Shown piece after piece: positions 51-41,604 of a DNA stretch of 64,000 nt (within the stretch, counting starts at the first letter, position 1; every line of letters begins with the position of its first letter). The stretch is from the UHGV virus genome UHGV-1351772; one strand, given 5' to 3'. This DNA comes from a virus. A model generated the notes under the pieces. The model ran no database searches and was not told where the DNA came from. It saw only the letters and a list, made by a program, of their open reading frames with translations. The position numbers and the translations under genes were made by a program.

Positions 51-3000
51 ATGAAACGCCTACAGTTGGCGAAGTATGGCTTTGGAAATTTGTCGTCTAT
101 TTCTAACTCGGCAATAGCGGGAGAAACAAGCGGTCCGTTAGCTGATCTGTTTCGACTAATGCACGATTTGGGACTAGTTAACCCGCTACGTCGCGAAACC
201 TTAGCATTAGACGATCGTTCTGCGGAATCTCTTTCTGCGGCGGCGAAGTTCGATCGTAAAGCTTACCTTAGTATCACAGAAGTTATTCCGACGTTACTGT
301 CCGAGATTAACAAATCTATTCGTCGTGGGTATGGCGAACACCACGATCAGGTTTATGACCTGACCACGCGCGGTATGGTGGATCGCAAAGTTATTGGTAA
401 TCGTGTACGTAAGGCCGTTGCTAATGACGATCAGCGCAAACGTTTACAGACGTACATCAACGACACTGTCGACTTTATCGATAAAGATAAAACGCTCGAT
501 AGGAAAACACGTCAAGCGTTAGCGGACTACATCGAGTCTCGTGCCTCGGAAGGGAAAGCGTTCGATGTAGGGTCTTTATTGAAAGACCCGATGCACATGT
601 ATCGATACATGAACGCAAACGCTGTGGAAGCGATTCAGGGTGTTTTAGAAGCCCGTTCTGCGGAACTGGTTGGCGGACACCATGAACTGAGTAATGCGAT
701 TTCAAACAAAATCGCCGCTATCCAGTCAACGATTCGTGCACGTCAAGACACGGTTGATGCTGCGTCTGTGATTTACGGCGAGAACGCACTTCGTGATTCC
801 GGTATTTTTAAATACGATGCGAAGAAAGACATTTTCGAGGTCGATAAGGACATTAACGATCCCTATACGTTATTTAATGACCTGTCGATGGGTAAGACCC
901 GCTCTGGACGTTCGTTAACCCGTGAGCAAGAGATTCAGCGTAAATTGCAAAACGGTTCTGCGCTGGGTGATTACTTGCGACGGATGGGTGCAGGCGCAGA
1001 GCCGAGCTTTGAAGACAAAGAACTGTCCAATGTACGTGGCGGTGGAAAAGGAGGTCGTGGTCGCGGTTTAAGCGCACGCCAACTCGCTGCGGTACTTTAT
1101 GGAGAGAAATCCACTAACTTTGTTGAACTGTTAAGCAGTCGTCCAGACACGAACGCCGGGTTGGAACAGCAATTCGACCGTTTGATTGATGCTGTACGTA
1201 AACAGCCCGAATCTAGCACAGTGCAAGATATCCTCAAACACGTTAAGAACATGGATGAGGAAGGTATTCTCCTAGCCAGTTTAGGCGGTAGTCGTGATGA
1301 CGGTGACGAATCTGAAAGTTCGAGTGACTCGGGTCGTAAACGTCGTCGTAAACGCAAACGTATTGTGCTAGGCGAGACAGGCTTGTTACGCCGTTGGGCT
1401 GGGGTGCTTTGGGATACCGGTTCAGGTGTAGGGCGGTTTGGTAAGAATCTGTTCCTACGTGGGAAAGATCGTCTGCAGGCTTTAGGTGGTTTTATCCGTG
1501 GGAAATTCTCAGGCGGCTCCTCCGAAGGACCCGGTGTATTTAGCCGACTGAAAGGGTTAGTAACAGGTACTCTATCGACAGGTTGGAATTCTGCTGTAGC
1601 TTTCGGTAAAGGCGTTTTAGGTGTTCGTGATATTTACGATGAACGTGGCAACGTCGTATTACAAGGAAGTCGTTTAGAAGCTGGGGAATATTACCAGGCT
1701 GACCCGAAAACTGAGAAGCTGATTCAACTTAAAACCCTCGACGATATTAAACTGGGACGTGATATTGTCGATGAAGCGGGTAATTTAATCTTAGCTGCTG
1801 CTGATTTGGCTGCCGCAGGTAAACTGCGTTTCTACAAAGGTGGTAAAGTTCAAGCGCTTTTCCAGTACATTTCTGGGAAAGCAGGAACGGCGGTAAACAA
1901 AGCTGTGACTTTACCGAAGAAACTTTTAGGCTTCATTTCACCTAAAGCGGCTTCGTTGTTCGAGAAAGCACGTGAGTGGCTAAATGAGGTTCCAGAGGGC
2001 GCAGAGAAAACCCGTTTACAAAGCATGATTTCCCGTGTAACGGGAATGCCAGCGCGTTTGTGGAACAATGCAAAACGCGGGTTTGAGAAGCTCAAAGAGT
2101 TGGCTTCTGATAACCCTCTGACACGTTGGTGGCAGAACCGTAAGGAAGGGGGTTCTGGTGGTGGGTTTAGTGTGTTCTCATGGTCGAACGGCCGTAAAAC
2201 TAACCACATCTTAATCCGTATCTACAAACTCCTTAACCGGAGATTGCCAGGTGAACCAGAAGATGATACCTGGACAGAACAGATGGAGCGGAATACGGGA
2301 GCCAGTTCAGTTAAAGGATTATTCCAACGTGCTAAAGACATACGCGATGGGTTCCGTGAACATTTTCAGGGGTTCCGGGATTGGCGCGGTCGGATGCGTG
2401 ACAGAATGTCCCGTTATCGCGGTGCGGTAGGCGATCGTCTTTCTCGTTGGGGCGGTACCGCACGTGGTTGGTTTGATCGTTTCCGTGGCCGTGCAAGCGA
2501 TATGGTCGATACTTTCCGCGATCCGCGTTACGATATCGGCACACGTTATCGAATGGAGAGTCGTTTAGCAGGACGCGATGACGATGTTGCTGAGTTTTAT
2601 CGTCAACACATCTACGCAAGAGGTAAGGTGTCTAAAACACGTATCATCGATGCGGCAAAAGAAGACTTAGACACCGTAACGGATAGCGCTGGACGTGTGA
2701 TTAATAAAGGGAAACAGAAAGCCCGTAGCGTTGGGTCAGCTTTACTGGAACGCCTGAACCGAATGGTTAATCTTCAGGAAATGTCATGGTTTAACACCAT
2801 GCGTGATTCTGCGGAAAAAGCAGGTGCTTCGGATGGTTTGTTAAGAACTATGTTCAGTAAGTTCGGCCAACGCAATAAACCGCCTGCCAGTGATGAAAAA
2901 CGTGATTACTTCCAGTTCTTCCGACGCCGTCGTCGTTCTAAGGAAGAGGAAAAGGCTAAGAAAGAAGCCGAGAAGAAAGGTGGTAAGCGCGGGGTGATGG

Positions 3001-6000
3001 ATTTCCTTAAAGGACTGCCGTTGGTAGGACCGATTGTGAGTATTTTAGGCACAGTAGGTTCAATCTTAGGTAAAGTCGCGAAATGGGGAATCTTTAAGCC
3101 GGTTGGGTTTGCAGGCAAAGCGTTGTGGAACGTTGGTAAGTTTGCTGTGACTCGTTTGGCTGTCCCTGCGGTGAGTGCTGTCGCGACGGCAGCATCTGCA
3201 GTGGTAACTGCGGTTGGCTGGCCGATTATCGGTTTGGTCGCTGCAGGCGCTGCGCTATCTTGGTTTGCATATAAAACTGCAACCCGTGTGAATGCTCAGT
3301 ATTTGGATAACATGCGATTGGCACAGTACGGATTTAGAGATCACGATGAGTGGTCTTCCGACGATGGCGCAAAAGCACGTTATTTAGAAGACAACTTGAA
3401 ACCGTACATCTCTTATACAGAGAATGGCCAAGCACAGTTGCGTGGTTTGTCCGGTGACGACGTGAAGAAACTGGCCGAAGGGTTTGGTACTAACGTAGAA
3501 GACAAAGGCGAAATGCTGGCGTTTAGTGCGTTTATGCTACAACGTTTTGTGCCGATCTATTTACGTTGGATTACGGCACTGAAATCCATGGATAATGATA
3601 TCGCGTTAGCAGATGTCGGTAATCCTGCGAAAGTGTCGAAGGCAGACATGTTGAATATCTTCAACAAAATGAAGATGTCGAAAGATGCGCCTGCATTCCG
3701 TGCATTAGAAGATCCCCGCAAGGTTAACCAAGGTTGGTTCTCTAAAGCGTGGGATTTCGTAACGTTTACCCCGGCCGAGTTTTTGTCAGGCGAAGAAGTC
3801 GTTGAAGCGCAAGAACGCGTGCTTCGTTCGATTAACATGCGTCGTGATGAAAAACGTAAGGATGTAAATGCTACAGGCGGTGTGGCCGAAGGACACAAAG
3901 TTGCTTCTGTGGCAGAATCGACCCAAGCGTTGGCTCAAGCGGATGCGGAACGCAACAAAGAAGTTGCGAAAGTCGAAGGTTGGGAAGACGGCACCGAACA
4001 AGTTCAGGTTCAAGTCGACTGGAGAAGCTTACCTAAAGAAACCGATCTCCGTGATTTGGAGTCCGTAAGGTTGAAAGCTTATGGTGCGGTGAGTATTACT
4101 CAAACAACCCGTAACCTCTATACGCTCTTGGAACGTCAAGTGTTGCAAGACACCGATGTGAAAAGCTGTACGTATAAAGGCGACTGGAAACGTGCGATTG
4201 CGGTGATTGCGCCTGACGCCATTGGTGGGCCAAAAGAAGATCGGTACAAGAACTGGTTCTATAACCGCTTCTTACCTGTCTTCATGACGTACGTGGTTGG
4301 GGTGAAACGTTATGTCCCTGCTGCCGATCCGATGGACCTACGCGTTACGGGTGGGTTCTTGTATGAAATCGCACTGATGATGCGTGGTGCATACAACCTG
4401 AAAGGGGGTATTCGTCAGTCAGTGTGGGAGGTACCGTTTAACCCGTTAGGGGGAGACGCTAACACCGACGCCGGTTCAGTTGCAACGGAGTTAGAGAACC
4501 TGAAAGAACTGTCTAAGGAAGCTGATTTGGCAGTACGTAAAACGCTGCGTGCTACGCCTTCTGCGGGTTTCCGTGTGAACTGGCAGCGAAAAGATCGCGC
4601 GACTCAGATGTTCTTGACCGACGATGAGAAGGAGCAACCGTCTCGACCACAGATGAACACCTCCTCCTCTTATCGTGACCTATTGCAACCAGCGGCAAAC
4701 GACGGTGGGAATTACGGCACACCAAACGATTTGGCCGGTGCTTACGGTCAGATGGGAGCTAAGAATTACGCTGCATTTACTACCGGTAACTTCGGCGTGA
4801 AACTTGGCGATATGCAAGACGGTGACTATAAAACGTTAGCGGCTAAGTATCCAATTTCAACGTTGGGTGACGGATTGAAGCCTAACTTGAATGCGGTTGC
4901 AGCACTGATTACAGACGTAGCGAAGATGATGGGTGTTCCTCCAGCGTTAGCACTGGGAATGGCACAAGCAGAATCTGGGCTTAGATACGGTATCAAAGCT
5001 AAAGGAAGTTCTGCGGCTGGCTTGTTCCAGTTCATCAACGATACCTGGGGTGCGCAGATGAAAGCTTATGCGAGACGTTATGGTATCCCGCAAACCAACC
5101 AGTATGACCCGTGGGCGAATGCTCTGCTTGGCGTCCGTCATATTCGTGATAATATCGAGAAAGCCAGAAAGGATTTAGGTGGTATCGATCCTCCAGGTGC
5201 AGCTGTTTACCTCTACCACTTCTTAGGACAAGGTGGCGGTAAGAAATTCCTGCAAGAATGGAAGCGTGATCCGAACGGGCCATCGTCGCGTGGTGCGTCG
5301 GCCGATCAAATCGCGGCAAACAGCACAATTTTCTACAAGAATGGAAAATTGCGTAGTTTGGATGAAGTGCTCAACATCATGGGTGGTAAGATTGGTGCTG
5401 TAGGAACAAACGCGATCGCGGCTAACCAGGCATCGCTGAAAGACTTGACGACAGGCGTAACACCAATGCCGTCTTCCCCGGCTATCGCTGCAGGCGCTGC
5501 TAACGATCCGTCTATCACAGGCCCGGCAGATAACCTGCCAGCCGCGAACGAGGCGAATCGCGACTCCGCTTTAGCAGACAAAGGCGCGATGGGTGCTGAA
5601 GATATTAAAGCTGCAACTGGTGGTGGTCCGGCTGTGCCGAGTCCTGGCGGCGATGTCACGCCGAGCGATGCGTCAGTTGTTGTAGAGACGGTGGGTCAAA
5701 ATGCACGTGCTGATGGCCTGGCCGAAGAAGAGGTTGCTAAAGTAAAAGAAGGTGCTAGACAGCAGATGGAGAAATCGGCCCGTCCTGCACCAACGGTAAC
5801 TTCCGATGCTCAGAGCGGTTCTACAGTGAACAGTGGTGATCCGATCAGTGTACAACAGCTGGCGGTTGCAAAAGAGTCTGCAGGCTATCTGAAAGAGATT
5901 GTAACAATTCTTCGCCAGCGGCCACAGGCTATGCAAAACGGTCCGGCTAACCCGGCGTCAACCGCTCCGGGTTCGGCGTCACGTAACGTGTCAATAACTC

Positions 6001-6041
6001 AACCCGCGCCGCAACTCGACGTTAGTCGTAAATCAGCGTAA
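51..6041 (+). CDS. Giant virion-associated protein with lytic transglycosylase (SLT) domain; possibly 5'-partial at window edge
   Basis: 1996-aa ORF; same frame has no stop between position 3 and the ATG at 51, so the gene may start upstream of the window. SLT motif MAQAESGL...SSAAGLFQF...YLYHFLGQGG at about nt 4926-5290. Hydrophobic segment cluster (GLPLVGPIVSILG...AVGWPIIGLVAAGAALSWFAY), basic stretch SGRKRRRKRKR, Ala/Pro/Gly-rich C-terminus. Intrinsic terminator immediately downstream. Confidence 0.7.
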   Translation: MKRLQLAKYGFGNLSSISNSAIAGETSGPLADLFRLMHDLGLVNPLRRETLALDDRSAESLSAAAKFDRKAYLSITEVIPTLLSEINKSIRRGYGEHHDQVYDLTTRGMVDRKVIGNRVRKAVANDDQRKRLQTYINDTVDFIDKDKTLDRKTRQALADYIESRASEGKAFDVGSLLKDPMHMYRYMNANAVEAIQGVLEARSAELVGGHHELSNAISNKIAAIQSTIRARQDTVDAASVIYGENALRDSGIFKYDAKKDIFEVDKDINDPYTLFNDLSMGKTRSGRSLTREQEIQRKLQNGSALGDYLRRMGAGAEPSFEDKELSNVRGGGKGGRGRGLSARQLAAVLYGEKSTNFVELLSSRPDTNAGLEQQFDRLIDAVRKQPESSTVQDILKHVKNMDEEGILLASLGGSRDDGDESESSSDSGRKRRRKRKRIVLGETGLLRRWAGVLWDTGSGVGRFGKNLFLRGKDRLQALGGFIRGKFSGGSSEGPGVFSRLKGLVTGTLSTGWNSAVAFGKGVLGVRDIYDERGNVVLQGSRLEAGEYYQADPKTEKLIQLKTLDDIKLGRDIVDEAGNLILAAADLAAAGKLRFYKGGKVQALFQYISGKAGTAVNKAVTLPKKLLGFISPKAASLFEKAREWLNEVPEGAEKTRLQSMISRVTGMPARLWNNAKRGFEKLKELASDNPLTRWWQNRKEGGSGGGFSVFSWSNGRKTNHILIRIYKLLNRRLPGEPEDDTWTEQMERNTGASSVKGLFQRAKDIRDGFREHFQGFRDWRGRMRDRMSRYRGAVGDRLSRWGGTARGWFDRFRGRASDMVDTFRDPRYDIGTRYRMESRLAGRDDDVAEFYRQHIYARGKVSKTRIIDAAKEDLDTVTDSAGRVINKGKQKARSVGSALLERLNRMVNLQEMSWFNTMRDSAEKAGASDGLLRTMFSKFGQRNKPPASDEKRDYFQFFRRRRRSKEEEKAKKEAEKKGGKRGVMDFLKGLPLVGPIVSILGTVGSILGKVAKWGIFKPVGFAGKALWNVGKFAVTRLAVPAVSAVATAASAVVTAVGWPIIGLVAAGAALSWFAYKTATRVNAQYLDNMRLAQYGFRDHDEWSSDDGAKARYLEDNLKPYISYTENGQAQLRGLSGDDVKKLAEGFGTNVEDKGEMLAFSAFMLQRFVPIYLRWITALKSMDNDIALADVGNPAKVSKADMLNIFNKMKMSKDAPAFRALEDPRKVNQGWFSKAWDFVTFTPAEFLSGEEVVEAQERVLRSINMRRDEKRKDVNATGGVAEGHKVASVAESTQALAQADAERNKEVAKVEGWEDGTEQVQVQVDWRSLPKETDLRDLESVRLKAYGAVSITQTTRNLYTLLERQVLQDTDVKSCTYKGDWKRAIAVIAPDAIGGPKEDRYKNWFYNRFLPVFMTYVVGVKRYVPAADPMDLRVTGGFLYEIALMMRGAYNLKGGIRQSVWEVPFNPLGGDANTDAGSVATELENLKELSKEADLAVRKTLRATPSAGFRVNWQRKDRATQMFLTDDEKEQPSRPQMNTSSSYRDLLQPAANDGGNYGTPNDLAGAYGQMGAKNYAAFTTGNFGVKLGDMQDGDYKTLAAKYPISTLGDGLKPNLNAVAALITDVAKMMGVPPALALGMAQAESGLRYGIKAKGSSAAGLFQFINDTWGAQMKAYARRYGIPQTNQYDPWANALLGVRHIRDNIEKARKDLGGIDPPGAAVYLYHFLGQGGGKKFLQEWKRDPNGPSSRGASADQIAANSTIFYKNGKLRSLDEVLNIMGGKIGAVGTNAIAANQASLKDLTTGVTPMPSSPAIAAGAANDPSITGPADNLPAANEANRDSALADKGAMGAEDIKAATGGGPAVPSPGGDVTPSDASVVVETVGQNARADGLAEEEVAKVKEGARQQMEKSARPAPTVTSDAQSGSTVNSGDPISVQQLAVAKESAGYLKEIVTILRQRPQAMQNGPANPASTAPGSASRNVSITQPAPQLDVSRKSA

Positions 6042-13708: not shown

Positions 13709-14077
13709 TCATTTCAACAAAACAAGATGAATTTGGTATTCGTCATCCGCAGGAGAAGAATAATCGCCAGTTACAGGTAACGTTATATCTTCCAGTAGAG
13801 CGTGGAAGGGTAATCCACGAGCAGCCTCAACAATTCGTACAAGCGGAAAACCCGTTCTTTTAATCCAATTGTAATCGACAAACATAACACCGCCAGGATT
13901 TTCCGAACCTTCCCACACACGAATTTCCACAGTCTTTCCCGAAAAGTTGGCCAGAACGGTGCGCAGTCCTAATTGCACATAACGGGGGAAGGGTACTTCA
14001 ATAACTTGTTTTGGTAAAACAAATTCAGGGAATTTAAAACCGAAACCTTTGGGTGTACTAAAAAACTGAGCTTGCAT
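13709..14077 (-). CDS. Hypothetical protein
   Basis: 122-aa ORF. Confidence 0.45.
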   Translation of the reverse strand: MQAQFFSTPKGFGFKFPEFVLPKQVIEVPFPRYVQLGLRTVLANFSGKTVEIRVWEGSENPGGVMFVDYNWIKRTGFPLVRIVEAARGLPFHALLEDITLPVTGDYSSPADDEYQIHLVLLK

Positions 14078-14094: not shown

Positions 14095-14136
14095 GTAAAA
14101 AATGAAAATACCCTACTCCTAGTCAGGAGTAGGGTA
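14095..14136 (-). terminator. Intrinsic terminator (leftward)
   Basis: Stem ACCCTACTCCT / AGGAGTAGGGT, loop AGTC; T-run on the minus strand. Confidence 0.7.
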
Positions 14137-14140
14137 GATG

Positions 14141-14800
14141 TTACATACGGGTAACTGAATCCCAGTAATCACGAAGATATTCTTGGTCTTCTGGGTCTTT
14201 CGGTGTAGCAGGGATATGACCGTCAAACTCAAACGGAATCACAGACAGAACATCGGCAATCTCGTAACGTTCGACTTCCAGTTCAACTTTCACCCAGTCA
14301 CCGACGCTGGTACTGCTACGCATTTCGGTGAGGAGATCGTTAAAGTCACCCGAAACCTCAATTGCTGGGTGTCCGGTGGTGACAGTGAAAATATCAATAT
14401 CCCAATGCTTAGCACCCTTATCGGCTAATTCACCCGGTTCTAAGTGAATACGTTTCACCAGGTGCGCCAAATAACCGTCCTTGTAAAAAGAGAGTGCAGA
14501 ACTAATCCCGATATCCGAATTCTCTTCAACCTTTCCGTCCAGGAATTTACGCTTAAGCGTTAGCTGTGCTGTACCGTCTTCTTTAATACGGATACGGCGA
14601 CGCCCACCTTCTATCGGCATGAGAATGTCCATGAACATCTTAGTGGACTGTGCGTGTAGCCAATCCCATCCCGCTTGCGTAGGTTTAACCCAGACGCAAT
14701 ATTCCTTTTCCACTTCGCGTTTAATGGATTCGCCCGCAACGCGAATAACCTCTTCTTCCTGCGCTTTTTCCAATTGCGCAAGGGTATCGAATAATCCCAT
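14141..14800 (-). CDS. Hypothetical protein
   Basis: 219-aa ORF; TAATG stop-start overlap with upstream gene. Confidence 0.5.
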   Translation of the reverse strand: MGLFDTLAQLEKAQEEEVIRVAGESIKREVEKEYCVWVKPTQAGWDWLHAQSTKMFMDILMPIEGGRRRIRIKEDGTAQLTLKRKFLDGKVEENSDIGISSALSFYKDGYLAHLVKRIHLEPGELADKGAKHWDIDIFTVTTGHPAIEVSGDFNDLLTEMRSSTSVGDWVKVELEVERYEIADVLSVIPFEFDGHIPATPKDPEDQEYLRDYWDSVTRM

Positions 14801-33452: not shown

Positions 33453-33490
33453 TACCCTACTCCTTCGGGAGTAGGGTAGCTTTTATTTTA
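33453..33490. terminator. Bidirectional intrinsic terminator
   Basis: Stem CCCTACTCC / GGAGTAGGG, loop TTCG, T-run TTTTATTTT downstream and A-run upstream. Confidence 0.75.
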
Positions 33491-34054: not shown

Positions 34055-34092
34055 GTGGAAAAAGAATTAACCCTACTCCCGGAGGAGTAGGG
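34055..34092 (-). terminator. Intrinsic terminator (leftward)
   Basis: Stem CCCTACTCC / GGAGTAGGG, loop CGGA; T-run on the minus strand. Confidence 0.7.
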
Positions 34093-34100
34093 GATTTAAA

Positions 34101-35033
34101 TTACTTTTTGGTTTGACCCAGGTTTTCAAGAACCAGTTCACGAATGTACTTCTGAGTACGTTTCTTCGGCGGTAAAGCCATAAGGGTGTCAACGATTCCC
34201 TGCCCACCGATAACCTTGCTGACGAGTTGTTGAACTTGGAAGAGTTCTGCTTCTTCGTCACTGATTTCATTAGCTTGGTCTTTCTGACACAATGCTTCTA
34301 CCAGGTCAGCTACGGATATTTCATTTTCGTCACCAGGGAAATCCAGGTTTAACGATTCGAAAACATCACGCTTAACGAGCACAGATTTCAGATCATCGTA
34401 GTTTTCACAAACGGCGACTTCTGTGCCAGGTACCGTTTCTTCTTCGTCTTGATCTTCATTCTCAGCGGAGAGGTAACTTACTTCTGTTGCGTGGAATGTT
34501 GCGTCAGCTTTTCTCAGGACGTAGCTCACATGCGACCAATTGCTCAGGATGAAGTAGACAACACCCCCATTTAATCCGATATTGCCCTGGCGAAGTTCGA
34601 GAGCAATTTCCAGGCGGCGTGAAATCTGCCCCAAGTCAAAGAAAGACTCGTCGCGTGCCGCAACAACTTCGTACTGATTCACCCCTTGTTCTACAACAAC
34701 GAACCAGTTATCCGGGAGAGGATACGGGTTGCGCATGAAAGAAAGTTCGTTCCCTACGCCTGGGTCAACAGTAACGGATGTATGGCGCATTCCCATGGAG
34801 AAGTTGAACGTATCCCCATTTAGAACCGCAATTGCACCGTCAATCGGAAGAATTTTGGTGGTACGATCAATAGAGAAAATCTCTTTCTGCGTAATTGAAG
34901 GCTGATTACTGCCTAGGAAGTGATTACGCAGAAAAGCAGCGGTTGGGCCTACGCTGGCTTGCAGTATATGGTGGTTATAACGACGACGCAGTGTGTTAGC
35001 CAGTTCGTAAATTACTTCTGATGGAAAAGTCAT
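34101..35033 (-). CDS. Hypothetical protein with acidic C-terminal region
   Basis: 310-aa ORF. Confidence 0.45.
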   Translation of the reverse strand: MTFPSEVIYELANTLRRRYNHHILQASVGPTAAFLRNHFLGSNQPSITQKEIFSIDRTTKILPIDGAIAVLNGDTFNFSMGMRHTSVTVDPGVGNELSFMRNPYPLPDNWFVVVEQGVNQYEVVAARDESFFDLGQISRRLEIALELRQGNIGLNGGVVYFILSNWSHVSYVLRKADATFHATEVSYLSAENEDQDEEETVPGTEVAVCENYDDLKSVLVKRDVFESLNLDFPGDENEISVADLVEALCQKDQANEISDEEAELFQVQQLVSKVIGGQGIVDTLMALPPKKRTQKYIRELVLENLGQTKK

Positions 35034-35086
35034 TTTAATAGTCCTCTTTTAGGTTTGTTCAAATCAACTAAGGGTTATGTAAAAAG

Positions 35087-35566
35087 TTAAAATAATGGCA
35101 AGTTACGCCATTGTCCTACCGAGTAAAAAGCTTTTGGATGTTTACGGATATACGCTTTCGCTTCTTCTGGCAACCAACGGTCACCTACCAGTTTTTGTTG
35201 TGCAACAATTACTGCCATCAACAAATAAGGGTTTTTCGCACCGGGAAACTTTGCATTGGTTTCTAGCGCAATATCCAACATTGACGACCAGCCCAGTAAT
35301 TTATGCTGCGCCGGTAAACGTTCTTCAATATACATCAGCCAGTTCATGATTTGTTTAGGTTTATACGGACAGGTATAATTCGCCCAACACACCATGACGA
35401 ACTTAATAGCCTTCGCAATCACCCATACAGGGACAGTCACGAAAAGGCAGAAAATAGCCAACTGCGATGCGGGCGCTTCGACAAAAGTAATCGCCACAAG
35501 GACCATAAACAATTCAAGTACCACAAACCAAAAACGCGTTGGATAACGCCAAATGAACTTTATCAT
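35087..35566 (-). CDS. Membrane protein (two predicted N-terminal TM segments)
   Basis: 159 aa; FWFVVLELFMVLVAITFV and LAIFCLFVTVPVWVIAKAI. Confidence 0.45.
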   Translation of the reverse strand: MIKFIWRYPTRFWFVVLELFMVLVAITFVEAPASQLAIFCLFVTVPVWVIAKAIKFVMVCWANYTCPYKPKQIMNWLMYIEERLPAQHKLLGWSSMLDIALETNAKFPGAKNPYLLMAVIVAQQKLVGDRWLPEEAKAYIRKHPKAFYSVGQWRNLPLF

Positions 35567-35587
35567 AACTCTGCTCCTTTAGGGAAT

Positions 35588-35628
35588 GAAAATAAAAGTA
35601 CCCCTTACTCCACAAAGGGTAAGGGGTA
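35588..35628 (-). terminator. Intrinsic terminator (leftward)
   Basis: Stem CCCCTTAC(C) / GGTAAGGGG; T-run on the minus strand. Confidence 0.6.
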
Positions 35629-35632
35629 GGGA

Positions 35633-36142
35633 TTAGAAGAACGGCTGATTTGGAATGACAGCGTACTCTAAAATGAACATGTGTTCTGGGGCGTCTTCTT
35701 TACGCCAGACCTTGTGTGTCGACACAAGTTTTTCCAGAATCGTTAGAAAACTACGCTGGCAGTATGTGTTTTCACCAAGCAGTAGATTTTGAAGTTCTAC
35801 AGTAGCGTCCATATACGCCTGTTTAAAGACTAAATTACGGTTATACTGCCCGGTAAAATTCCAAAGCAAGACTTTCCCTTCTTCGGTTTCTTTTACCGTT
35901 GGTCGTAAACCACAAATCCACAGTAAGGCAAGGTTGACGTTCCAGTCAAACTCTAAACCTTCTTCTTCGTCATCACCGAATGCTGTGGGTAAAGCATCGT
36001 AAAATTCGTGTTTCTCTGCGAATTCTTCATCCGACTTAATCTCGTCTTCGATACTGCTTCGGACGATACTGTAAACGTCTTTCGCGGTCAATTGTGCGGC
36101 TTTTGTAATGCCTTTATACCAATCGGTTACTACGATGCTCAA
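35633..36142 (-). CDS. Hypothetical protein
   Basis: 169-aa ORF. Confidence 0.45.
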   Translation of the reverse strand: MSIVVTDWYKGITKAAQLTAKDVYSIVRSSIEDEIKSDEEFAEKHEFYDALPTAFGDDEEEGLEFDWNVNLALLWICGLRPTVKETEEGKVLLWNFTGQYNRNLVFKQAYMDATVELQNLLLGENTYCQRSFLTILEKLVSTHKVWRKEDAPEHMFILEYAVIPNQPFF

Positions 36143-36864
36143 AGGGTAACTCCTCTATTGATTGGAAAACTCGTGTTTATCGTATCCCAAATTCTACTAA
36201 CTTCCGCCAGTTGAATCTGACGTGGTGTTTTCTTCGCAAACGCAAGCTGACGTGGGGCCGAGCCCACAACAACAGGCACATCGATTTTCGCGCTATAGAA
36301 CGCGGCGTCTTTCATAAAGCCTGCCATTTCTCGTTGTGCTGCTCGAGATTTGCTTTTGATTCGCGTGTGAGCGCCACTTTCACCCCAGTGGTAAGCTAAC
36401 GCAATTTCAGCCATGGTGGGCTTGCGTTTGAGTCGTTTGGTTAACCCCTTCTCAAGATGTTTAACATACGCGGCAGCCAGCAAAACAGCATTACGCGGAT
36501 TATATAAATCGGCGTTCTGACTAAGACCTAATTCTTTTCCATAAAGCCTTAGCAGATTACGCTTGGTACTTGGAAGCATCTGTACCAGGCTGTGTGCTCG
36601 TGAGCTTTTGTTGTAAGCCTTGGGATCAAAACGTGATTCGCGATAAATCAGCGTAATCATCAGCTTAGGATCAACGCCTTGCTTTCGTGAGATTTCCACA
36701 ATTAACGGGCTGACTTTTTCGAACCGATGTTGGATTTGTGCAAACTCACGCTGATGCTTAGAATGTGGCGTTGACGTTGACGCCTGTGCGTTAAACGCGA
36801 AAAGTGTTACCAGTAAAAGAAAGAAGATACGAAACATTTTGTTTCTCCAGTTGGATTTATACAT
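36139..36864 (-). CDS. Secreted lytic transglycosylase (SLT domain with signal peptide)
   Basis: 241 aa; signal peptide MFRIFFLLLVTLFAFNAQAS; SLT motif YRESRFDPKAYNKSSRAHSLVQMLPST and ALAYHWGESG. Confidence 0.65.
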   Translation of the reverse strand: MYKSNWRNKMFRIFFLLLVTLFAFNAQASTSTPHSKHQREFAQIQHRFEKVSPLIVEISRKQGVDPKLMITLIYRESRFDPKAYNKSSRAHSLVQMLPSTKRNLLRLYGKELGLSQNADLYNPRNAVLLAAAYVKHLEKGLTKRLKRKPTMAEIALAYHWGESGAHTRIKSKSRAAQREMAGFMKDAAFYSAKIDVPVVVGSAPRQLAFAKKTPRQIQLAEVSRIWDTINTSFPINRGVTL

Positions 36865-36937
36865 TTCCGTATTCCGTAAGACGAAATGACGGCGCGGACA
36901 GCTAATACTCCTTTGTTGTGTGCCCTAATGATAATAT

Positions 36938-37498
36938 CTATTTAAAAGAGTTTGGAATTAATGACTCTGCTTCTTGATACAACTTATCAGGTAAGTATAA
37001 CGTGTAGCGTTGCCTCCTCGGTTCAAGTTTTTTGTAAAGCCACAAAAAGATTTCTTGTCTTTCCCAGGAATCTAACCACCCGTTTGCCATTCCAAGTGGA
37101 GGGATAGCAACGCTGGTATCCAGATCCTCAGCACAATCCGCCAGTGCGGTAATGCCCGCAGTAACATAAGAAACCTGGGACTTTAAGCGCCAATGGGTTT
37201 TCGTGGGGAGCAAGATACACTTTTCGTCAGAGTAAACGTAAACGTTTCCAATCTTAATTTCGTTTTCACGACACCGCTTACGATAATTCTGGTAAAGGTT
37301 GGGGTAGCGTTCACGACACGCGAGTGCAATGCCGCGACCCATCGCTCCTACGCAGTTAATGGTAACGACTTTATAGTCTTCGGGCGCATTAAAAAGATCG
37401 TTATCAATTTCAGATTCTTTACGTACCGTTAACATAACGAAACGCCCGGAGTTGATGTGTAGTATTAAAACGTGTACCGCCGATTGATAGCTCGACAA
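36938..37498 (-). CDS. Macro domain protein (TARG1/OARD1-like, Macro_2 type)
   Basis: DLFNAPEDYKVVTINCVGAMGRGIALACRERYP and VAIPPLGMANGWLD fit the TARG1-like macro-domain pattern; ORF-finder start is TTG, a more likely ATG is at about 37435. Confidence 0.5.
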   Translation of the reverse strand: MSSYQSAVHVLILHINSGRFVMLTVRKESEIDNDLFNAPEDYKVVTINCVGAMGRGIALACRERYPNLYQNYRKRCRENEIKIGNVYVYSDEKCILLPTKTHWRLKSQVSYVTAGITALADCAEDLDTSVAIPPLGMANGWLDSWERQEIFLWLYKKLEPRRQRYTLYLPDKLYQEAESLIPNSFK

Positions 37499-37522
37499 GT
37501 ATAGCGATATATGTTTTACCCA

Positions 37523-37891
37523 TTATCGATTTTTCGTAATCCATTGCTTGACCGCCGCTTCTAAACCCTCGTGTTGTAAGCCCAGGCGTTGCATAGTCAG
37601 TGCCAAGTTAAGCGTGTGTACGACCTGCTCACGGAACCGATGATCGTTCATACGGTCCCAGACCTTCTCTACTGAAATATTGTGTTTCCAGAGCAAATAA
37701 GCTTCACGACACGATGCACGACGAACTAAGCTAGGTTTAACAAAAGGCAACTCGATTTCAGGCAAGTAACCTAAAAGCTTAACTAACGGCGTTACTTGTG
37801 TCTTACCGAAGTCGCCACACTGATAACAAATTTGTAGAATATCAATTTCATTCAACGGTATACCGTAAATTGATGGGTTCTCTGTGAACAT
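37523..37891 (-). CDS. Hypothetical protein
   Basis: 122-aa ORF with GAGGAG ribosome-binding site. Confidence 0.45.
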   Translation of the reverse strand: MFTENPSIYGIPLNEIDILQICYQCGDFGKTQVTPLVKLLGYLPEIELPFVKPSLVRRASCREAYLLWKHNISVEKVWDRMNDHRFREQVVHTLNLALTMQRLGLQHEGLEAAVKQWITKNR

Positions 37892-38093
37892 TCATATTCT
37901 CCTCAGGCTCGAAATGTGTTTCGGGTGGCAACGTCCCTAAAGCCCCTTGGATACAAGCCGTCAGTGAAGGTTTGCCGAAACAGACCTTACCTATTGTCCC
38001 CACATTGGGATGCTGTAAGAACGCTTTCGCACGTTCGTATTCCTTCCAACAAATACTCGTATCCAAACCACCCACTCCGTACGATTTTAACAT
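37848..38093 (-). CDS. Hypothetical protein
   Basis: 81-aa ORF with AGGAGAG upstream; 44-nt overlap with the downstream gene. Confidence 0.35.
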   Translation of the reverse strand: MLKSYGVGGLDTSICWKEYERAKAFLQHPNVGTIGKVCFGKPSLTACIQGALGTLPPETHFEPEENMNVHREPINLRYTVE

Positions 38094-38159
38094 AATTAGC
38101 TCTCCTGACGTAAATTTCTCACACTCATAGTGAGGTACGCCAAGAGAGCTTTATTGTTT

Positions 38160-38609
38160 TTAGAATGTTTTGCTAAAATCGACCCACTCACGATCGCGTG
38201 AGTAAACCGCCTGATAGCCGCGTCGGATGAAATACTCTTTTGCTTCTTTACATTTCGCATACATGCCAGTAACAATCTCGCCGAAAACTTCATCAGCTGC
38301 AATTGCTTTGAAAATCTCTTTCATTACACCCCGTTGACGATAGTCTGGGAGCACGTATACCGAACGTATCTTAAGTGAACCGTTACGATTCCGATAACTA
38401 CAGTATCCTACCGCGACATCATCCTGATACACCAGAACTATGCAGTTACCTTCGATCAGCTGTCGCGCATTTAACTTCGGCACCGACGTTTTGATTTTCA
38501 GTAACGTGGCCTGGTGGTCTAAGTAACGGTAGTGTAGTTTGAGTAAATCGGCAGCTTGTCGCTCACCGACTTTAGAAGATGCGTTCAACAAATAAATTTC
38601 CATTTGCAA
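38160..38609 (-). CDS. GNAT-family N-acetyltransferase
   Basis: 149 aa; motif A-like IRSVYVLPDYRQRGVMKEIFKAI. Confidence 0.55.
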   Translation of the reverse strand: MQMEIYLLNASSKVGERQAADLLKLHYRYLDHQATLLKIKTSVPKLNARQLIEGNCIVLVYQDDVAVGYCSYRNRNGSLKIRSVYVLPDYRQRGVMKEIFKAIAADEVFGEIVTGMYAKCKEAKEYFIRRGYQAVYSRDREWVDFSKTF

Positions 38610-38635
38610 ACCTTAGAGACGCAAAAAAAGTAAAA

Positions 38636-38764
38636 TTAAAACCAACGCGCGATGACGAAAGCCGCAGCGGCTAATATGGCTGTGGTGATTATTAATCCAC
38701 CCCATGAAAGTTCCGCGTCGTATAGTGCGGATATCGCTACATTCGTAGCGTTTATCGTGGTCAT
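38636..38764 (-). CDS. Small hydrophobic peptide (42 aa, C-terminal TM)
   Basis: Hand-translated: MTTINATNVAISALYDAELSWGGLIITTAILAAAAFVIARWF; AGGAG upstream; below ORF-finder length cutoff. Confidence 0.35.
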   Translation of the reverse strand: MTTINATNVAISALYDAELSWGGLIITTAILAAAAFVIARWF

Positions 38765-38821
38765 TTTCTGCTCCTGTCAATACCCTCACACCGGAGGGTA
38801 TCTTCTGGATTATCTGGGTGG

Positions 38822-38920
38822 TTAATCTTCGAATGCCCAACGGTGACGTTTAATCAGCCAGTTTAAACCTTTACCAATTAACCACAACGAGCCAAGTGTT
38901 AACAGAACCCCTACAACCAT
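38822..38920 (-). CDS. Small hydrophobic peptide (32 aa, N-terminal TM, basic tail)
   Basis: Hand-translated: MVVGVLLTLGSLWLIGKGLNWLIKRHRWAFED; AGGAGAGGG upstream. Confidence 0.35.
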   Translation of the reverse strand: MVVGVLLTLGSLWLIGKGLNWLIKRHRWAFED

Positions 38921-38930
38921 ATTCCCTCTC

Positions 38931-39116
38931 CTAATTCCGCCATTCGCATTCGCGTTGACGCCAAATTGAACCCCACGATAGTTTAATCAGATAAGATGAA
39001 ACTACCCATAAAATCATCACCACACAAAACATGACATAAAGAACCGCTAGAATGGACATGAAGCCAAACCCTGCCGCATCCACAATATGACGGAACCAAT
39101 CAGTTTGCATAAACAA
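38931..39116 (-). CDS. Small membrane protein (61 aa)
   Basis: Hydrophobic core FGFMSILAVLYVMFCVVMILWVV; start overlaps the stop of the SbcC-like gene. Confidence 0.35.
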   Translation of the reverse strand: MFMQTDWFRHIVDAAGFGFMSILAVLYVMFCVVMILWVVSSYLIKLSWGSIWRQRECEWRN

Positions 39117-41604
39117 TTTTTACTCCTTCGTTATACACCGCAGGCAATGTCACCCCTTCCGGTTCGATGACACAGTACGATGCTTCATTAAGTTTAGAAT
39201 GAACCTCGGCTTCGTGGGAGACTACCAACAGTTGAGAAAATTCTCCCGAGTTTGCTAACGTTTTAATAAAGCCGACCAGGTTGTTACGGTGCTCCTCATC
39301 CATGCCTTCCGAAGGCTCATCCAAAAGCAATGGAAACTGATGCAACTTCAGCGCTTTGTACGCAGTCAGCCTGAACATCAGATTAAATATCGCACGCTGC
39401 GCCTTAGACCCTTTACGCACGTCAGGAACAGGCTCAGGATGCGTTTTTAGCTGGACAGGAAAAGTATAATCCAAATCGCCGTCAGTGAGGTCACAAGGCA
39501 TAACGCGCATGGGGTACGTCCAGACCTGTTCGATATAACGCGTCATTAACTCTGTGATTCTAACGATAGCGTTGTAAAAATACTTTCTAAGTACACCCTT
39601 TTCTGGAGAGAAGGCTTGAATCATCAGTTTGTTATTGAACTGCTGGGCTTGTAAGTCAGCAAGTTCGCGTTCCAAACTGTTGAGCTGATTCAATTCATTT
39701 TCCATCTGACGATAACGTTCGCGTGCGGTTGTAAAAGCATCCAGCTTCCCTTCTCGTGCACGTAAGAGTTCCTCGACGACCGTATTTGTCAACGTAACCT
39801 TAACATCACTCTCTAACCGTTCGAATAACGCACTGAAATCATCTACAGCACGTTTAACATTCACCAGATAGGTAAGTGTCGTGTTAGCCAGTTCGTGCTC
39901 TCTACGACGCATTGAGAGCATTTCTGTGGCTTTACCTAATCGTGACTGTTGGAAAGCGATTTTCTGTTGTAAAGCACCATCGACGTTACCAACGGCCGCC
40001 ACGGCATCCTGCCATTCTTTTTCCGCCTTCACTAACCGTTGTCGGGTTTCATGGTACTCAATAGCAGAGTACAACTCGCTGTCAAACGCTGCGCATAGAC
40101 TCCCGAACTGTTCACGTGATTCTGTGAAAACGTTACGTTCTTGCAAACGCTTAAAGAACATGCTCAATACCGGGTCCTTTGAATACGTCAGTACAATCTC
40201 ACGAACCTGCCGCATATAAGTTACATCAGATTCTAATTCAACACGATCGCGTAATAAGGTCTCTAACTGCGTTTGCAGTTCCGTGCGCTGCTGTTGTTGT
40301 CCGCGAATCGAAGACTCAAGTTCAGGTAAAGAACGCGTAACACCAGGCCGAAACTTAAACCGACACTGCGGGCAATCCACTTCCGCTGTTTCTAAGTAGT
40401 GATTACGTTCGTGATTTAAATTCTGTAAAACGTTCTCCACTCGCTGGAGTCTATCCCGCAACCCTGCGGTTTTTTGATCCATCACCAGAAGCCGTTCTTC
40501 CAAAACATTGAGTTTTTCAGTTGAATGAATTGCGTCCAGTGTTGTTCCTAACCGTTGCCCCCAGACACGCGCATCGGTAGCCGCACGAAGTTGGTCTAAA
40601 TTGACGTTGTCGTTAAATAGACCCGGAAAGAGATGCTCGGTGTCCCATTTGGTAAGTAACTCACGTAAACGCGCCAATGTATTCTTGAGACCTTCGTGAT
40701 TCCGCATCAGGTAGTCTTGTCGTGTCGATTCATCCATCAATAACGACAAGTCTTTATTCAACATCGATACCTCTGTTTCAGTAGACACGACAGCTTCGCG
40801 GGCCGTCGCTTCGTTTTGTCGCGCGGCCAGTATCTGTTCATCAGTAGGCAGTCCACCACGATGTTGTAATATTGCGTCGATGGTTGGGCCCAAGCTGTTT
40901 AATAACGCTTGGATTGTTTCGATGGTGACGGCACGATTTAATCCTGGCAACTGTTCGATTTCTCGGTTCAGTTCACGTAAATCCGATTCCAAACCTTTTA
41001 ATCTCGTCGCCAACTGCTGCCGTTCTTCCTCGTTCTCAATAACACGCGTCCGCAATTCGGCGATTTTACGGCTGGTGATTTCAATACCCCCATTTAAGGC
41101 AGTAAGGTTTTTACGTAAACGTTGATAAAACCCTAACGCGTAGGTGAGGTCAGAGGTACTTAAACGGTAAAACCACTTACGACGCAGTTCCGTTCCTGCA
41201 TCCGTTAAAAGCACTTCTCCGTTCAGTAGTTCTTTAATCTCTTTTGTAATGCCTGTGATTTCTTCAACACGGGAGTTGTAGACTTTCGCATTACCTTGCT
41301 CGACGATCTTTGCCCCCGTGGTCAAGTTCTCAATATCACAAACCAGTGAGTTCCCTTTACGGGCAACTTTGAATCGATAGCGTTGATCACCAACTAAACA
41401 GTAGTTCGTGTAAGAACCGCCGTCCCTGAATTCGGTTTTGGCCGGTGCTAAGGGTAAGAATACAGACAGTAGACTGGTTTTCCCGCAACCGTTTCCACCC
41501 AGGATAATTGTTGTTGGGGACTGGATAGTGAAATCGAATGTTTCAATTTCATGTAACCCCATCCCCGTAAAACCTTTGAGTATAATGCGTTCAACTTTTA
41601 GCAT
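39100..41604 (-). CDS. SbcC/Rad50-like ATPase (SMC-type, coiled-coil)
   Basis: Start set at MLKVERIILKGF with GGAGGTG upstream; Walker A ILGGNGCGKTSLL; long coiled-coil middle; Walker B/D-loop LLLDEPSEGMDEEHR and LLVVSHE. Confidence 0.65.
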   Translation of the reverse strand: MLKVERIILKGFTGMGLHEIETFDFTIQSPTTIILGGNGCGKTSLLSVFLPLAPAKTEFRDGGSYTNYCLVGDQRYRFKVARKGNSLVCDIENLTTGAKIVEQGNAKVYNSRVEEITGITKEIKELLNGEVLLTDAGTELRRKWFYRLSTSDLTYALGFYQRLRKNLTALNGGIEITSRKIAELRTRVIENEEERQQLATRLKGLESDLRELNREIEQLPGLNRAVTIETIQALLNSLGPTIDAILQHRGGLPTDEQILAARQNEATAREAVVSTETEVSMLNKDLSLLMDESTRQDYLMRNHEGLKNTLARLRELLTKWDTEHLFPGLFNDNVNLDQLRAATDARVWGQRLGTTLDAIHSTEKLNVLEERLLVMDQKTAGLRDRLQRVENVLQNLNHERNHYLETAEVDCPQCRFKFRPGVTRSLPELESSIRGQQQQRTELQTQLETLLRDRVELESDVTYMRQVREIVLTYSKDPVLSMFFKRLQERNVFTESREQFGSLCAAFDSELYSAIEYHETRQRLVKAEKEWQDAVAAVGNVDGALQQKIAFQQSRLGKATEMLSMRRREHELANTTLTYLVNVKRAVDDFSALFERLESDVKVTLTNTVVEELLRAREGKLDAFTTARERYRQMENELNQLNSLERELADLQAQQFNNKLMIQAFSPEKGVLRKYFYNAIVRITELMTRYIEQVWTYPMRVMPCDLTDGDLDYTFPVQLKTHPEPVPDVRKGSKAQRAIFNLMFRLTAYKALKLHQFPLLLDEPSEGMDEEHRNNLVGFIKTLANSGEFSQLLVVSHEAEVHSKLNEASYCVIEPEGVTLPAVYNEGVKIVYAN

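Follow-up and report, generated by a model that had tools for sequence, protein, structure and literature searches.

A putative AdfM ortholog, an orphan DarG2-type macrodomain, in an SPN3US/Asesino-like jumbo phage

The window, a 64,000-nucleotide stretch of UHGV virus genome UHGV-1351772, encodes a macrodomain protein flanked by a lytic transglycosylase (SLT) and, at a distance of two genes, by a GNAT-fold acetyltransferase. The three ORFs lie on the minus strand where the initial annotation had placed them, and each has a Pfam match above its gathering score; their starts have been corrected here. For the macro gene, comparison with homologs indicates that translation most likely begins at ATG 37435 and not at TTG 37498, giving a protein of 165 aa encoded at 36938..37435. 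Homologs were 150-174 aa long in all 50 database cases, and the close ones, of 161-166 aa, align from the Met at 37435. The remaining 5' extension of the mechanical ORF (37436..37498, minus strand) is probably not translated, as judged from the homolog starts and from the absence of a Shine-Dalgarno-like sequence before TTG 37498. The motifs initially quoted for this gene, NCVGAMGRGIA and VAIPPLGMANGW, are both found in its translation.

Adjoining the macro gene, as originally described, is the gene for an SLT with a Sec-type signal peptide (MFRIFFLLLVTLFAFNAQA, followed by S) at 36139..36837 on the minus strand. Its start is most likely ATG 36837: a GGAG stands 8 nt before it, and relatives are called from the same residue. 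The 232-aa product has a hydrophobic N-terminus and its catalytic Glu in the motif RESRF; it matches Pfam SLT PF01464 (53.6 bits against a cut-off of 21.3, 2e-14) and phrog_4067 (5e-47). A resemblance to the transglycosylases of secretion systems had been proposed, but the best PDB sequence match is the PhiKZ endolysin gp144 (9xps, 2.8e-7; 3bkh, 3e-7), whose IESAF aligns to RESRF, and the setting is a phage genome. MltC and MltE/EmtA follow gp144 among the solved relatives. The window protein shares with gp144 (3BKH, 9XPS) an SLT catalytic domain with an E-S motif; it differs in that the region ahead of the catalytic domain in gp144 is replaced by an N-terminal Sec-type signal peptide. Relatives are often annotated as “putative endolysin”, and also as transglycosylase. 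From these similarities, the gene most likely encodes a signal-peptide endolysin of the phage.

The acetyltransferase gene occupies 38160..38603 on the minus strand, with ATG 38603 as its most likely start (147 aa). The protein scores above the cut-offs for Acetyltransf_1, _7 and _10 (PF00583 and PF13508 each at 32.9 bits), with a Pfam match that spans YVLPDYRQRG, the acetyl-CoA-binding motif A, and it belongs to phrog_3810 (9e-26). NCBIfam gave weak matches to ArsN2 and RimI that fall far below their cut-offs, no specific subfamily passed a curated cut-off, and a word-indexed homolog search returned near-identical proteins only, without a functional clue. The gene is a feature of the SPN3US-like clade only; tblastn retrieved 50 phage records at 28-40% identity, nearly all from Salmonella and Erwinia SPN3US-like jumbo phages. 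Between it and the macro gene are two minus-strand ORFs, in agreement with the initial description of a GNAT two genes away. The ORF at 37523..37891 (122 aa, phrog_11720) keeps its position in SPN3US and Asesino at 42-43% identity, and that at 37848..38093 (81 aa, phrog_28329) is conserved in both phages at 44-50% identity.

Gene order places the window in an SPN3US/Asesino-like jumbo phage. The succession SMC, GNAT, small ORFs, macro, SLT, phrog_8114 and, further on, a virion protein corresponds gene for gene to that in Asesino and SPN3US. A megablast search of positions 35000-40000 against the phage collection returned no match; protein searches were therefore used, because in its DNA the phage has diverged too far for megablast. 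In the phage record collection, homologs of the macro protein occur in 265-276 records, with a maximum identity of 65%, and relatives with 89-93% identity were found only in metagenome assemblies and Salmonella isolate assemblies. Neither chimallin, msRNAP nor any other nucleus hallmark was recognised among 20 larger ORFs of the window with PHROGs and Pfam; the phage was therefore assigned to its family by the gene order it shares with Asesino and SPN3US. Given its relatedness to Asesino, a demonstrated nucleus-forming phage, we infer that the window phage may also form a nucleus.

In sequence, the macro protein is a free-standing version of the macrodomain part of DarG2, a bacterial antitoxin. 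It matches Pfam Macro PF01661 with 27.6 bits against a gathering cut-off of 22, and the PADLOC DarG profile with 5.2e-37. The match to NCBIfam antitoxin_DarG (NF048014; 124 bits, 6e-36) covers only profile positions 7-155 of 338 and lies far under the equivalog cut-off of 250. The best PDB sequence matches found with phmmer are the DarG proteins of Mycobacterium tuberculosis (2.6e-25) and Thermus aquaticus (2.1e-20). Consistent with this, the top Foldseek matches of an AF2 model of the protein (pLDDT 93.9) are four entries of DarG macrodomains (E 2.5e-13 to 1.4e-9). The predicted catalytic residues, Asn27 and Lys79, align with N23/K78 of PhiKZ AdfM and N22/K80 of T. aquaticus DarG; across 28 homologs Lys79 is invariant and Asn27 nearly so, being kept in at least 90%. 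The phosphate-binding loop reads G30-x-M32-G33-x-G35, and a second conserved loop is formed by P112-P113-L114-G115...G119. The protein is 61.6% identical to Asesino gp217, which occupies the syntenic position. For this protein, the analysis establishes the fold, the family, the catalytic residues and, with respect to Asesino gp217, orthology by position.

Comparison with DarG2 of T. aquaticus and M. tuberculosis (PDB 5M31, 5M3E, 5M3I) shows a common macrodomain fold (TM 0.77-0.85, 31-35% identity), including the equivalents of N22/K80 and the glycine-rich ADP-ribose-binding loops. The window protein corresponds to the N-terminal half only; the C-terminal DarT-binding domain is absent, and no partner DarT gene lies among the 10 genes scanned around it. 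The initial annotation had classified the domain as TARG1/OARD1 type. The placement in the TARG1/DarG branch of macrodomains stands, and the human TARG1 structure (PDB 4J5Q) belongs to the same branch; the closest family, however, is DarG and not TARG1, which shares 19% identity and ranks fifth in Foldseek (E 5.9e-8) behind the four DarG entries. A phmmer search of the PDB gave no TARG1 match up to E 10. In an alignment with TARG1, which is less secure than the other comparisons, the catalytic Lys expected of a TARG1-type domain was found (K84 of TARG1 aligns with Lys79), but Asp125 aligns with the invariant Gly119, and the catalytic Asn of AdfM and DarG is replaced by Ser in TARG1. We consequently downgraded the TARG1 label, since DarG is clearly closer and the TARG1 Asp is not conserved. 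Macrodomains of the DarG/TARG1 branch can take other substrates, and extra or different targets are possible.

Proteins of this kind have been named AdfM, an abbreviation of anti-DarT factor macro. The AdfM proteins of the chimalliviruses PhiKZ (gp104), PhiPA3 (gp108), Goslar (gp83) and Asesino (gp217) are likewise stand-alone DarG2-type macrodomains of about 160-166 aa from jumbo phages of the same lineage, and have the catalytic Asn and Lys in common with the window protein. The latter is a new sequence compared with these named members, 40% identical to the biochemically tested PhiKZ protein. PhiKZ AdfM frees an oligonucleotide of the ADP-ribose attached by DarT2 and counteracts the toxicity of DarT2; on its own it rescues DarT2 toxicity in E. 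coli, and PhiKZ lacking AdfM loses 3-6 logs of titre on cells expressing DarTG2 (PMC13309987). The same study covers activity, phenotype and localisation for PhiKZ, the deletion phenotype and localisation for PhiPA3, and localisation only for Asesino, whose gp217 it explicitly names AdfM and finds in the phage nucleus (Morgan et al., Cell Rep 2026, PMC13309987). Based on this orthology, the product of 36938-37435 is very likely an AdfM, predicted to counter host DarTG2, and we infer from the orthologs that it may have the enzymatic activity, undergo nuclear import and protect against DarTG2.

In the proposed mechanism, the host DarT2 toxin would ADP-ribosylate single-stranded phage DNA at the thymidines of TNTC motifs. 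The AdfM ortholog would bind the ADP-ribose in its macrodomain cleft, and a Lys79/Asn27 active site would hydrolyse the base-ribose bond, making the protein a predicted DNA ADP-ribosyl glycohydrolase that returns the DNA to its unmodified state. Replication and packaging of the restored DNA could then go ahead. In nucleus-building relatives, AdfM is imported into the compartment that holds the phage DNA. Lacking the DarT-binding C-terminal domain and an adjacent DarT, the protein would be used against a host system and not as an antitoxin. The strategy has a parallel in the NADAR-type AdfB of T4-like phages and ICP1, which is directed against DarTG1: two reports (PMC11825919, PMC11481870) describe an orphan antitoxin hydrolase that undoes DNA ADP-ribosylation by DarT. 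AdfB differs in having a NADAR fold and not a macro fold, and in countering the guanosine modification of DarT1 and not the thymidine modification of DarT2.

Two other roles for the macrodomain were considered. The protein could act mainly on something other than ADP-ribosyl-thymidine in DNA, such as RNA or protein ADP-ribosylated by other host ADP-ribosyltransferases (ARTs), or soluble ADP-ribose derivatives, among which ADPr-1''-phosphate, O-acetyl-ADPr and signalling nucleotides are candidates. Relatives of the macro protein carry annotations such as “phosphatase” or “Appr-1-p processing”, jumbo-phage macro domains have been proposed to degrade soluble ADPr signals or toxins (Iyer et al. 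2021), and the fold also resembles the protein-directed macrodomains of TARG1 and viral nsP3. We nevertheless consider such a main substrate unlikely, given that no other class of macrodomain comes near DarG in similarity to the protein, that the DarG-type Asn/Lys pair is conserved, and that orthologs show DNA de-ADP-ribosylation together with a DarTG2-specific phenotype (PMC13309987). Alternatively, the macrodomain might reverse or limit ADP-ribosylation by an ART of the phage itself, as a form of self-regulation or immunity. The corresponding gene of some Streptomyces phages bears the annotation “ADP-ribosyltransferase”, hinting at ART-macro fusions elsewhere. This is extremely improbable for the window phage, in which none of the 10 proteins scanned around the macro gene has an ART or DarT (DUF4433) domain; the characterised orthologs, moreover, counter a host toxin (PMC13309987).

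The initial annotation had also grouped macrodomain, GNAT and SLT into one candidate anti-ADP-ribosylation module, in which the GNAT could share the macrodomain's substrate or use a related one. All three genes are on one strand, on which no convincing terminator-like site was seen from 41650 to ~35600, and the order of GNAT, macro and SLT is retained in SPN3US and Asesino. However, the phyletic spreads differ widely, with the macro gene in 265-276 phage records as given above, the SLT in 139 and the window GNAT in 50, and PhiKZ-type phages have AdfM without either neighbour. For example, Churi encodes an AdfM that matches PhiKZ gp104 at 100% identity; there, Pfam scanning of three flanking ORFs revealed no GNAT, and no transglycosylase is annotated near AdfM. 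Derbicusvirus and one Vibrio jumbo phage have macro and SLT genes with no GNAT detected, and in RAY-like phages ~80 kb separates the SLT from the macro gene. Pfam likewise found no GNAT in selected AdfM-flanking ORFs of Simmy50, pVp-JHP1101, EarlPhillipIV, Noxifer, SA002 and Providencia phage PSTRCR_127 and, at the level of record annotation only, no acetyltransferase is listed for Psa21 or the phiEco32-like phage Paul. The SLT would work in the periplasm, away from DNA, because of its signal peptide and its kinship to the PhiKZ endolysin, and the ability of PhiKZ AdfM to rescue DarT2 toxicity alone also argues against a module. We regard a single three-gene module as very unlikely; the SLT is an ordinary neighbour that is not part of AdfM function, and the GNAT is an ordinary neighbour of the macro gene.

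One further observation that could favour a link is that two other jumbo-phage genera, those of Serratia phage Kodama (Moabitevirus) and Klebsiella phage FBKp24 (Maaswegvirus), have a different GNAT directly upstream of their AdfM homolog; the phrog_3810 GNAT lies 2-4 genes upstream of AdfM in the clade of SPN3US, Asesino and the window. Equating the Kodama/FBKp24 GNAT with that of the window was rejected: BLASTP gave no significant alignment, the two do not fall into the same PHROG, and they score 15 against each other in hhalign, compared to 27-30 for each against E. coli RimI. Common ancestry of these GNATs is not supported because all three comparisons were negative, the hhalign score being lower than those to RimI, and they are not specifically related. 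Independent recruitment of GNATs near AdfM on at least two occasions, perhaps in cooperation with the macrodomain, is a doubtful possibility. If true, the GNAT might, for example, acetylate DarT, some other protein of the defence or a product derived from ADP-ribose, and GNAT and AdfM would form a counter-defence of two enzymes, which goes unmentioned in the AdfM paper (PMC13309987). The repeated proximity of GNATs to AdfM is the only remaining lead, and a weak one.

The timing of expression that was initially suggested is not supported either. The region had been described as early, but PhiKZ AdfM is reported to be expressed late, and the macro gene lies directly upstream of the endolysin-like gene, with no convincing terminator-like site on the same strand before ~35600. 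A scan for sigma-70 promoters gave 9 sites compared to 14.6 in shuffles; such a scan can be expected to be uninformative for a phage with RNA polymerases of its own.

The anti-DarT role of such macrodomains has already been published (2026). The proposal that the macro gene counters DarT-type DNA ADP-ribosylation was made from sequence alone, and it agrees with a function confirmed experimentally in 2026 for the orthologs (AdfM, PMC13309987). Assemblies of Salmonella enterica isolates contain the SPN3US-like lineage of the window as contigs of ~225 kb. The gene described here adds to the range of AdfM a lineage of SPN3US-like jumbo phages that is either unisolated or undeposited, and suggests that enterobacterial jumbo phages are also under pressure from DarTG2.

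The macro gene at 36938-37435 on the minus strand encodes an ortholog of AdfM (anti-DarT factor macro), the orphan DarG2-type macrodomain of jumbo phages; the analysis established its fold, its family, its catalytic residues and its orthology. The gene belongs to a long minus-strand block that includes all three ORFs singled out in the initial annotation: a soluble lytic transglycosylase (SLT) ORF at 36139-36864 (241 aa), the macro ORF at 36938-37498 (186 aa) and a GNAT acetyltransferase ORF at 38160-38609 (149 aa). The domains described there were recovered by Pfam above the gathering scores (SLT, 53.6 bits; Macro PF01661, 27.6 bits where 22 is required; Acetyltransf_1 and Acetyltransf_7, 32.9 bits each), and the GNAT is indeed two genes from the macro gene, with ORFs of 122 aa (37523-37891) and 81 aa (37848-38093) intervening. 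Judging from homologous sequences, the ATG at 37435 is almost certainly the start codon of the macro gene, giving a protein of 165 residues, because all 50 of 50 database homologs are 150-174 aa long and the close ones, of 161-166 aa, align from this methionine. Translation of the SLT most likely begins at the ATG at 36837, 8 nt downstream of a GGAG; in a Salmonella assembly, its relative is annotated with a length of 232 aa. For the GNAT, the ATG at 38603 (147 aa) is the most likely start.

Several lines of evidence identify the macro protein as a DarG macrodomain. Among defence-system profiles it matched PADLOC DarG at 5.2e-37, and it matched NCBIfam antitoxin_DarG at 6.1e-36 with 124 bits, a score well short of the 250 required for an equivalog. 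The latter alignment covers only positions 7-155 of the 338 in the profile, so the protein corresponds to the macrodomain half of DarG and lacks the half that binds DarT. Its top sequence matches among solved structures are all DarG entries, from Mycobacterium tuberculosis (5m3i, 2.6e-25), Thermus aquaticus (5m31/5m3e, 2.1e-20) and Thermosipho DarTG (7omu, 5e-12). A confident AlphaFold2 model built with 28 homologs as input (mean pLDDT 93.9, pTM 0.90) gave DarG macrodomain entries as the first three Foldseek matches in the PDB (E 2.5e-13 to 5.5e-13, TM 0.77-0.85, 31-35% identity), followed by Thermosipho DarTG and, in fifth place, TARG1 (E 5.9e-8, 19% identity). With DarG first and TARG1 fifth, the earlier label "TARG1-like" was correct as to the branch of the macrodomain tree but one step away from the closest family.

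The active site agrees with this placement. In a multiple alignment, Lys79 of the window protein corresponds to PhiKZ K78, T. aquaticus DarG K80 and TARG1 K84, and Asn27 corresponds to PhiKZ N23 and T. aquaticus DarG N22, the position being Ser in TARG1. Among 28 homologs, neither Lys79 nor the glycine-rich loops vary, and Asn27 is nearly invariant. A Macro profile with both a catalytic Lys and an Asp aligned had been expected; the profile and the Lys were found, whereas TARG1 Asp125 falls on Gly119, invariant in the AdfM family, a less secure comparison than the others. In P0001, a database homolog 93% identical to the window AdfM and belonging to a cluster of 157 member sequences, Tyr replaces the catalytic Asn27 (TIYCVG versus TINCVG), which may reflect natural inactivation, altered specificity or an assembly error.

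A tblastn search of 50,697 phage records found macro homologs in 265, the best (60-65% identity) in Salmonella phage SPN3US and its relatives (Seoulvirus) and in Erwinia phages Asesino, phiEaH2, Stratton and others. The gene order of the window is that annotated in SPN3US and Asesino: an SMC-like ATPase and small ORFs are followed by the acetyltransferase, then, after two to four hypothetical genes, by macro, the transglycosylase and a phrog_8114 protein, and last by a convergent pair with a virion structural protein at its end. Gene-by-gene tblastn identities to Asesino are 69.7% (SMC), 37.9% (GNAT), 44% (orf81), 42% (orf122), 61.6% (macro), 50.4% (SLT), 54.7% (orf169), 70.9% (orf174) and 82% (orf457). 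Much closer relatives (macro 89-93%, GNAT 92-99%) were found only in metagenome/SRA and Salmonella enterica isolate assemblies, and the 226,167-bp contig AAWEAX010000007.1 of GCA_014613015.1 (locus L004) has a local gene order identical to that of the window. From these relatives and this synteny, the window is assigned by sequence to an SPN3US-like jumbo phage missing from the curated phage collection, with Salmonella or a related enterobacterium as its probable host. In S. enterica isolate assemblies, near-complete genomes of this phage type are each found on one contig of about 225 kb (L004, and the 224,967-bp contig carrying the homolog P0056), which suggests jumbo phage carriage in bacterial cultures, as a carrier state or pseudolysogeny, and a Salmonella host.

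The initial annotation further proposed that macro, GNAT and SLT form an anti-ADP-ribosylation module. This proposal is not supported, given their differing phyletic spreads and neighbourhoods and the sufficiency of PhiKZ AdfM alone. Macro homologs occur in 265-276 phage records, spanning many jumbo-phage genera, phiEco32-like podophages, some T4-like phages and others, and SLT homologs in 139; homologs of the window GNAT (phrog_3810) occur in only 50, nearly all SPN3US-like jumbo phages of Salmonella and Erwinia, and it is 28-40% identical to them, far below neighbouring genes. Churi is a PhiKZ-type phage with an AdfM 100% identical to PhiKZ gp104; Pfam detected no GNAT among the three flanking ORFs scanned in it, and no transglycosylase is annotated nearby. 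The record of Psa21 annotates neither. PhiKZ AdfM neutralises DarT2 by itself (PMC13309987). Macro and SLT lie close together, with no GNAT detected, in Derbicusvirus and one Vibrio jumbo phage, and about 80 kb separate them in RAY-like phages. Serratia phage Kodama (locus L006, 3532-4441) and Klebsiella phage FBKp24 (L010, 3014-4402) do carry a GNAT directly upstream of their AdfM homolog, in a context unlike that of the window (RNA polymerase subunit, helicase, GNAT, macro). These two GNATs are mutual orthologs (31% identity), and a specific relationship to the window GNAT is not supported: BLASTP found nothing significant, they fall outside phrog_3810, and the hhalign score between the groups is 15, against 30 (window clade) and 27 (Kodama/FBKp24) with Escherichia coli RimI. 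Jumbo phages carry several GNATs, and two unrelated ones near AdfM in two lineages could be chance; cooperation with the macrodomain has a low probability. In the Agricanvirus-like jumbo phages Simmy50 of Erwinia (L009, 3543-5334) and SA002 of Salmonella (L014, 2548-3846), the AdfM homolog is flanked by proteins with weak SLOG/YAcAr (YspA-related) matches, by sequence a different ADP-ribose-related neighbourhood, and in SA002 the macrodomain lies at the N-terminus of a fusion protein of 290 aa.

The SLT (36139-36837, minus strand) adjoins the macro gene and has, as had been described, a signal peptide, of the Sec type (MFRIFFLLLVTLFAFNAQA/S). A resemblance to secretion-system transglycosylases was not borne out: the closest solved relative is PhiKZ endolysin gp144, whose catalytic Glu motif aligns with that of the SLT, and many relatives are annotated as putative endolysins. 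A second SLT-type domain (aa 1614-1843) lies in a 1996-aa virion/tail protein (51-6041, plus strand; phrog_3201) that may be a virion-associated cell-wall-piercing enzyme. On these grounds, the 232-aa SLT is best read as an endolysin acting in the periplasm, rather than as a transglycosylase of a secretion system or an enzyme paired with a DNA repair function. The next gene (35633-36142, minus strand; 169 aa, phrog_8114) has a TTG start that overlaps the SLT stop codon; this gene also follows the SLT in SPN3US and Asesino and may encode a lysis partner. Two genes downstream of the SLT, 35087-35566 (minus strand) encodes a protein of 159 aa for which two or three transmembrane segments are predicted and which could be a holin or other membrane protein; among the loci compared it was found only in the window lineage (L004/L005), and in neither SPN3US nor Asesino. 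Assignment of the macro gene to an early region is likewise unsupported, as PhiKZ AdfM is reported to be late-expressed and the window gene lies just upstream of the endolysin-like SLT; the minus strand shows no convincing terminator-like site after these genes until about 35600.

Elsewhere in the window, a palindromic hairpin, CCCTACTCC-N4-GGAGTAGGG, occurs three times (14111-14134, 33455-33476 and 34071-34092), its half-sites giving 6 matches against 0.15 expected by chance. The latter two copies were called as bidirectional terminator-like sites between ORFs in the scanned stretch, and the first lies in the gap between ORFs 13709-14077 and 14141-14800; the hairpin has the look of a terminator or regulatory element that the phage reuses. 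Two very small minus-strand ORFs of 61 aa (38931-39116) and 42 aa (38636-38764), each with one strongly hydrophobic segment, separate the SMC-like gene from the GNAT and are both kept in the close relatives L004/L005.

The proposed role in countering DarT-type DNA ADP-ribosylation is right by orthology to AdfM, but is already published (Morgan et al., Cell Reports 2026, PMC13309987). PhiKZ gp104 strips ADP-ribose from a DarT2-modified TNTC oligonucleotide, with the N23A mutant impaired, fully rescues DarT2 toxicity in E. coli and enters the phage nucleus by import; on cells expressing DarTG2, the titre of PhiKZ without gp104 drops by three to six logs, and about half of chimalliviruses have macrodomain homologs (PMC13309987). 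Asesino gp217 (YP_009290835.1), named AdfM in the published alignment, is nuclear as a GFP-tagged form (PMC13309987). The syntenic counterpart of the window gene is exactly gp217, and the window protein is 40% identical to PhiKZ gp104 (E 4e-30), so the window gene joins an already characterised family. No chimallin or multisubunit RNA polymerase gene was found among 20 larger window ORFs, and nucleus formation by this phage is therefore predicted from its kinship with Asesino, a demonstrated nucleus-forming phage. By orthology, we infer that the window AdfM has the same activity, nuclear import and DarTG2 phenotype. It would bind the ADP-ribose that host DarT2 places on thymidine of single-stranded phage DNA, its Asn27/Lys79 site would hydrolyse the linkage, and a lesion that would otherwise block replication and packaging would thereby be removed.
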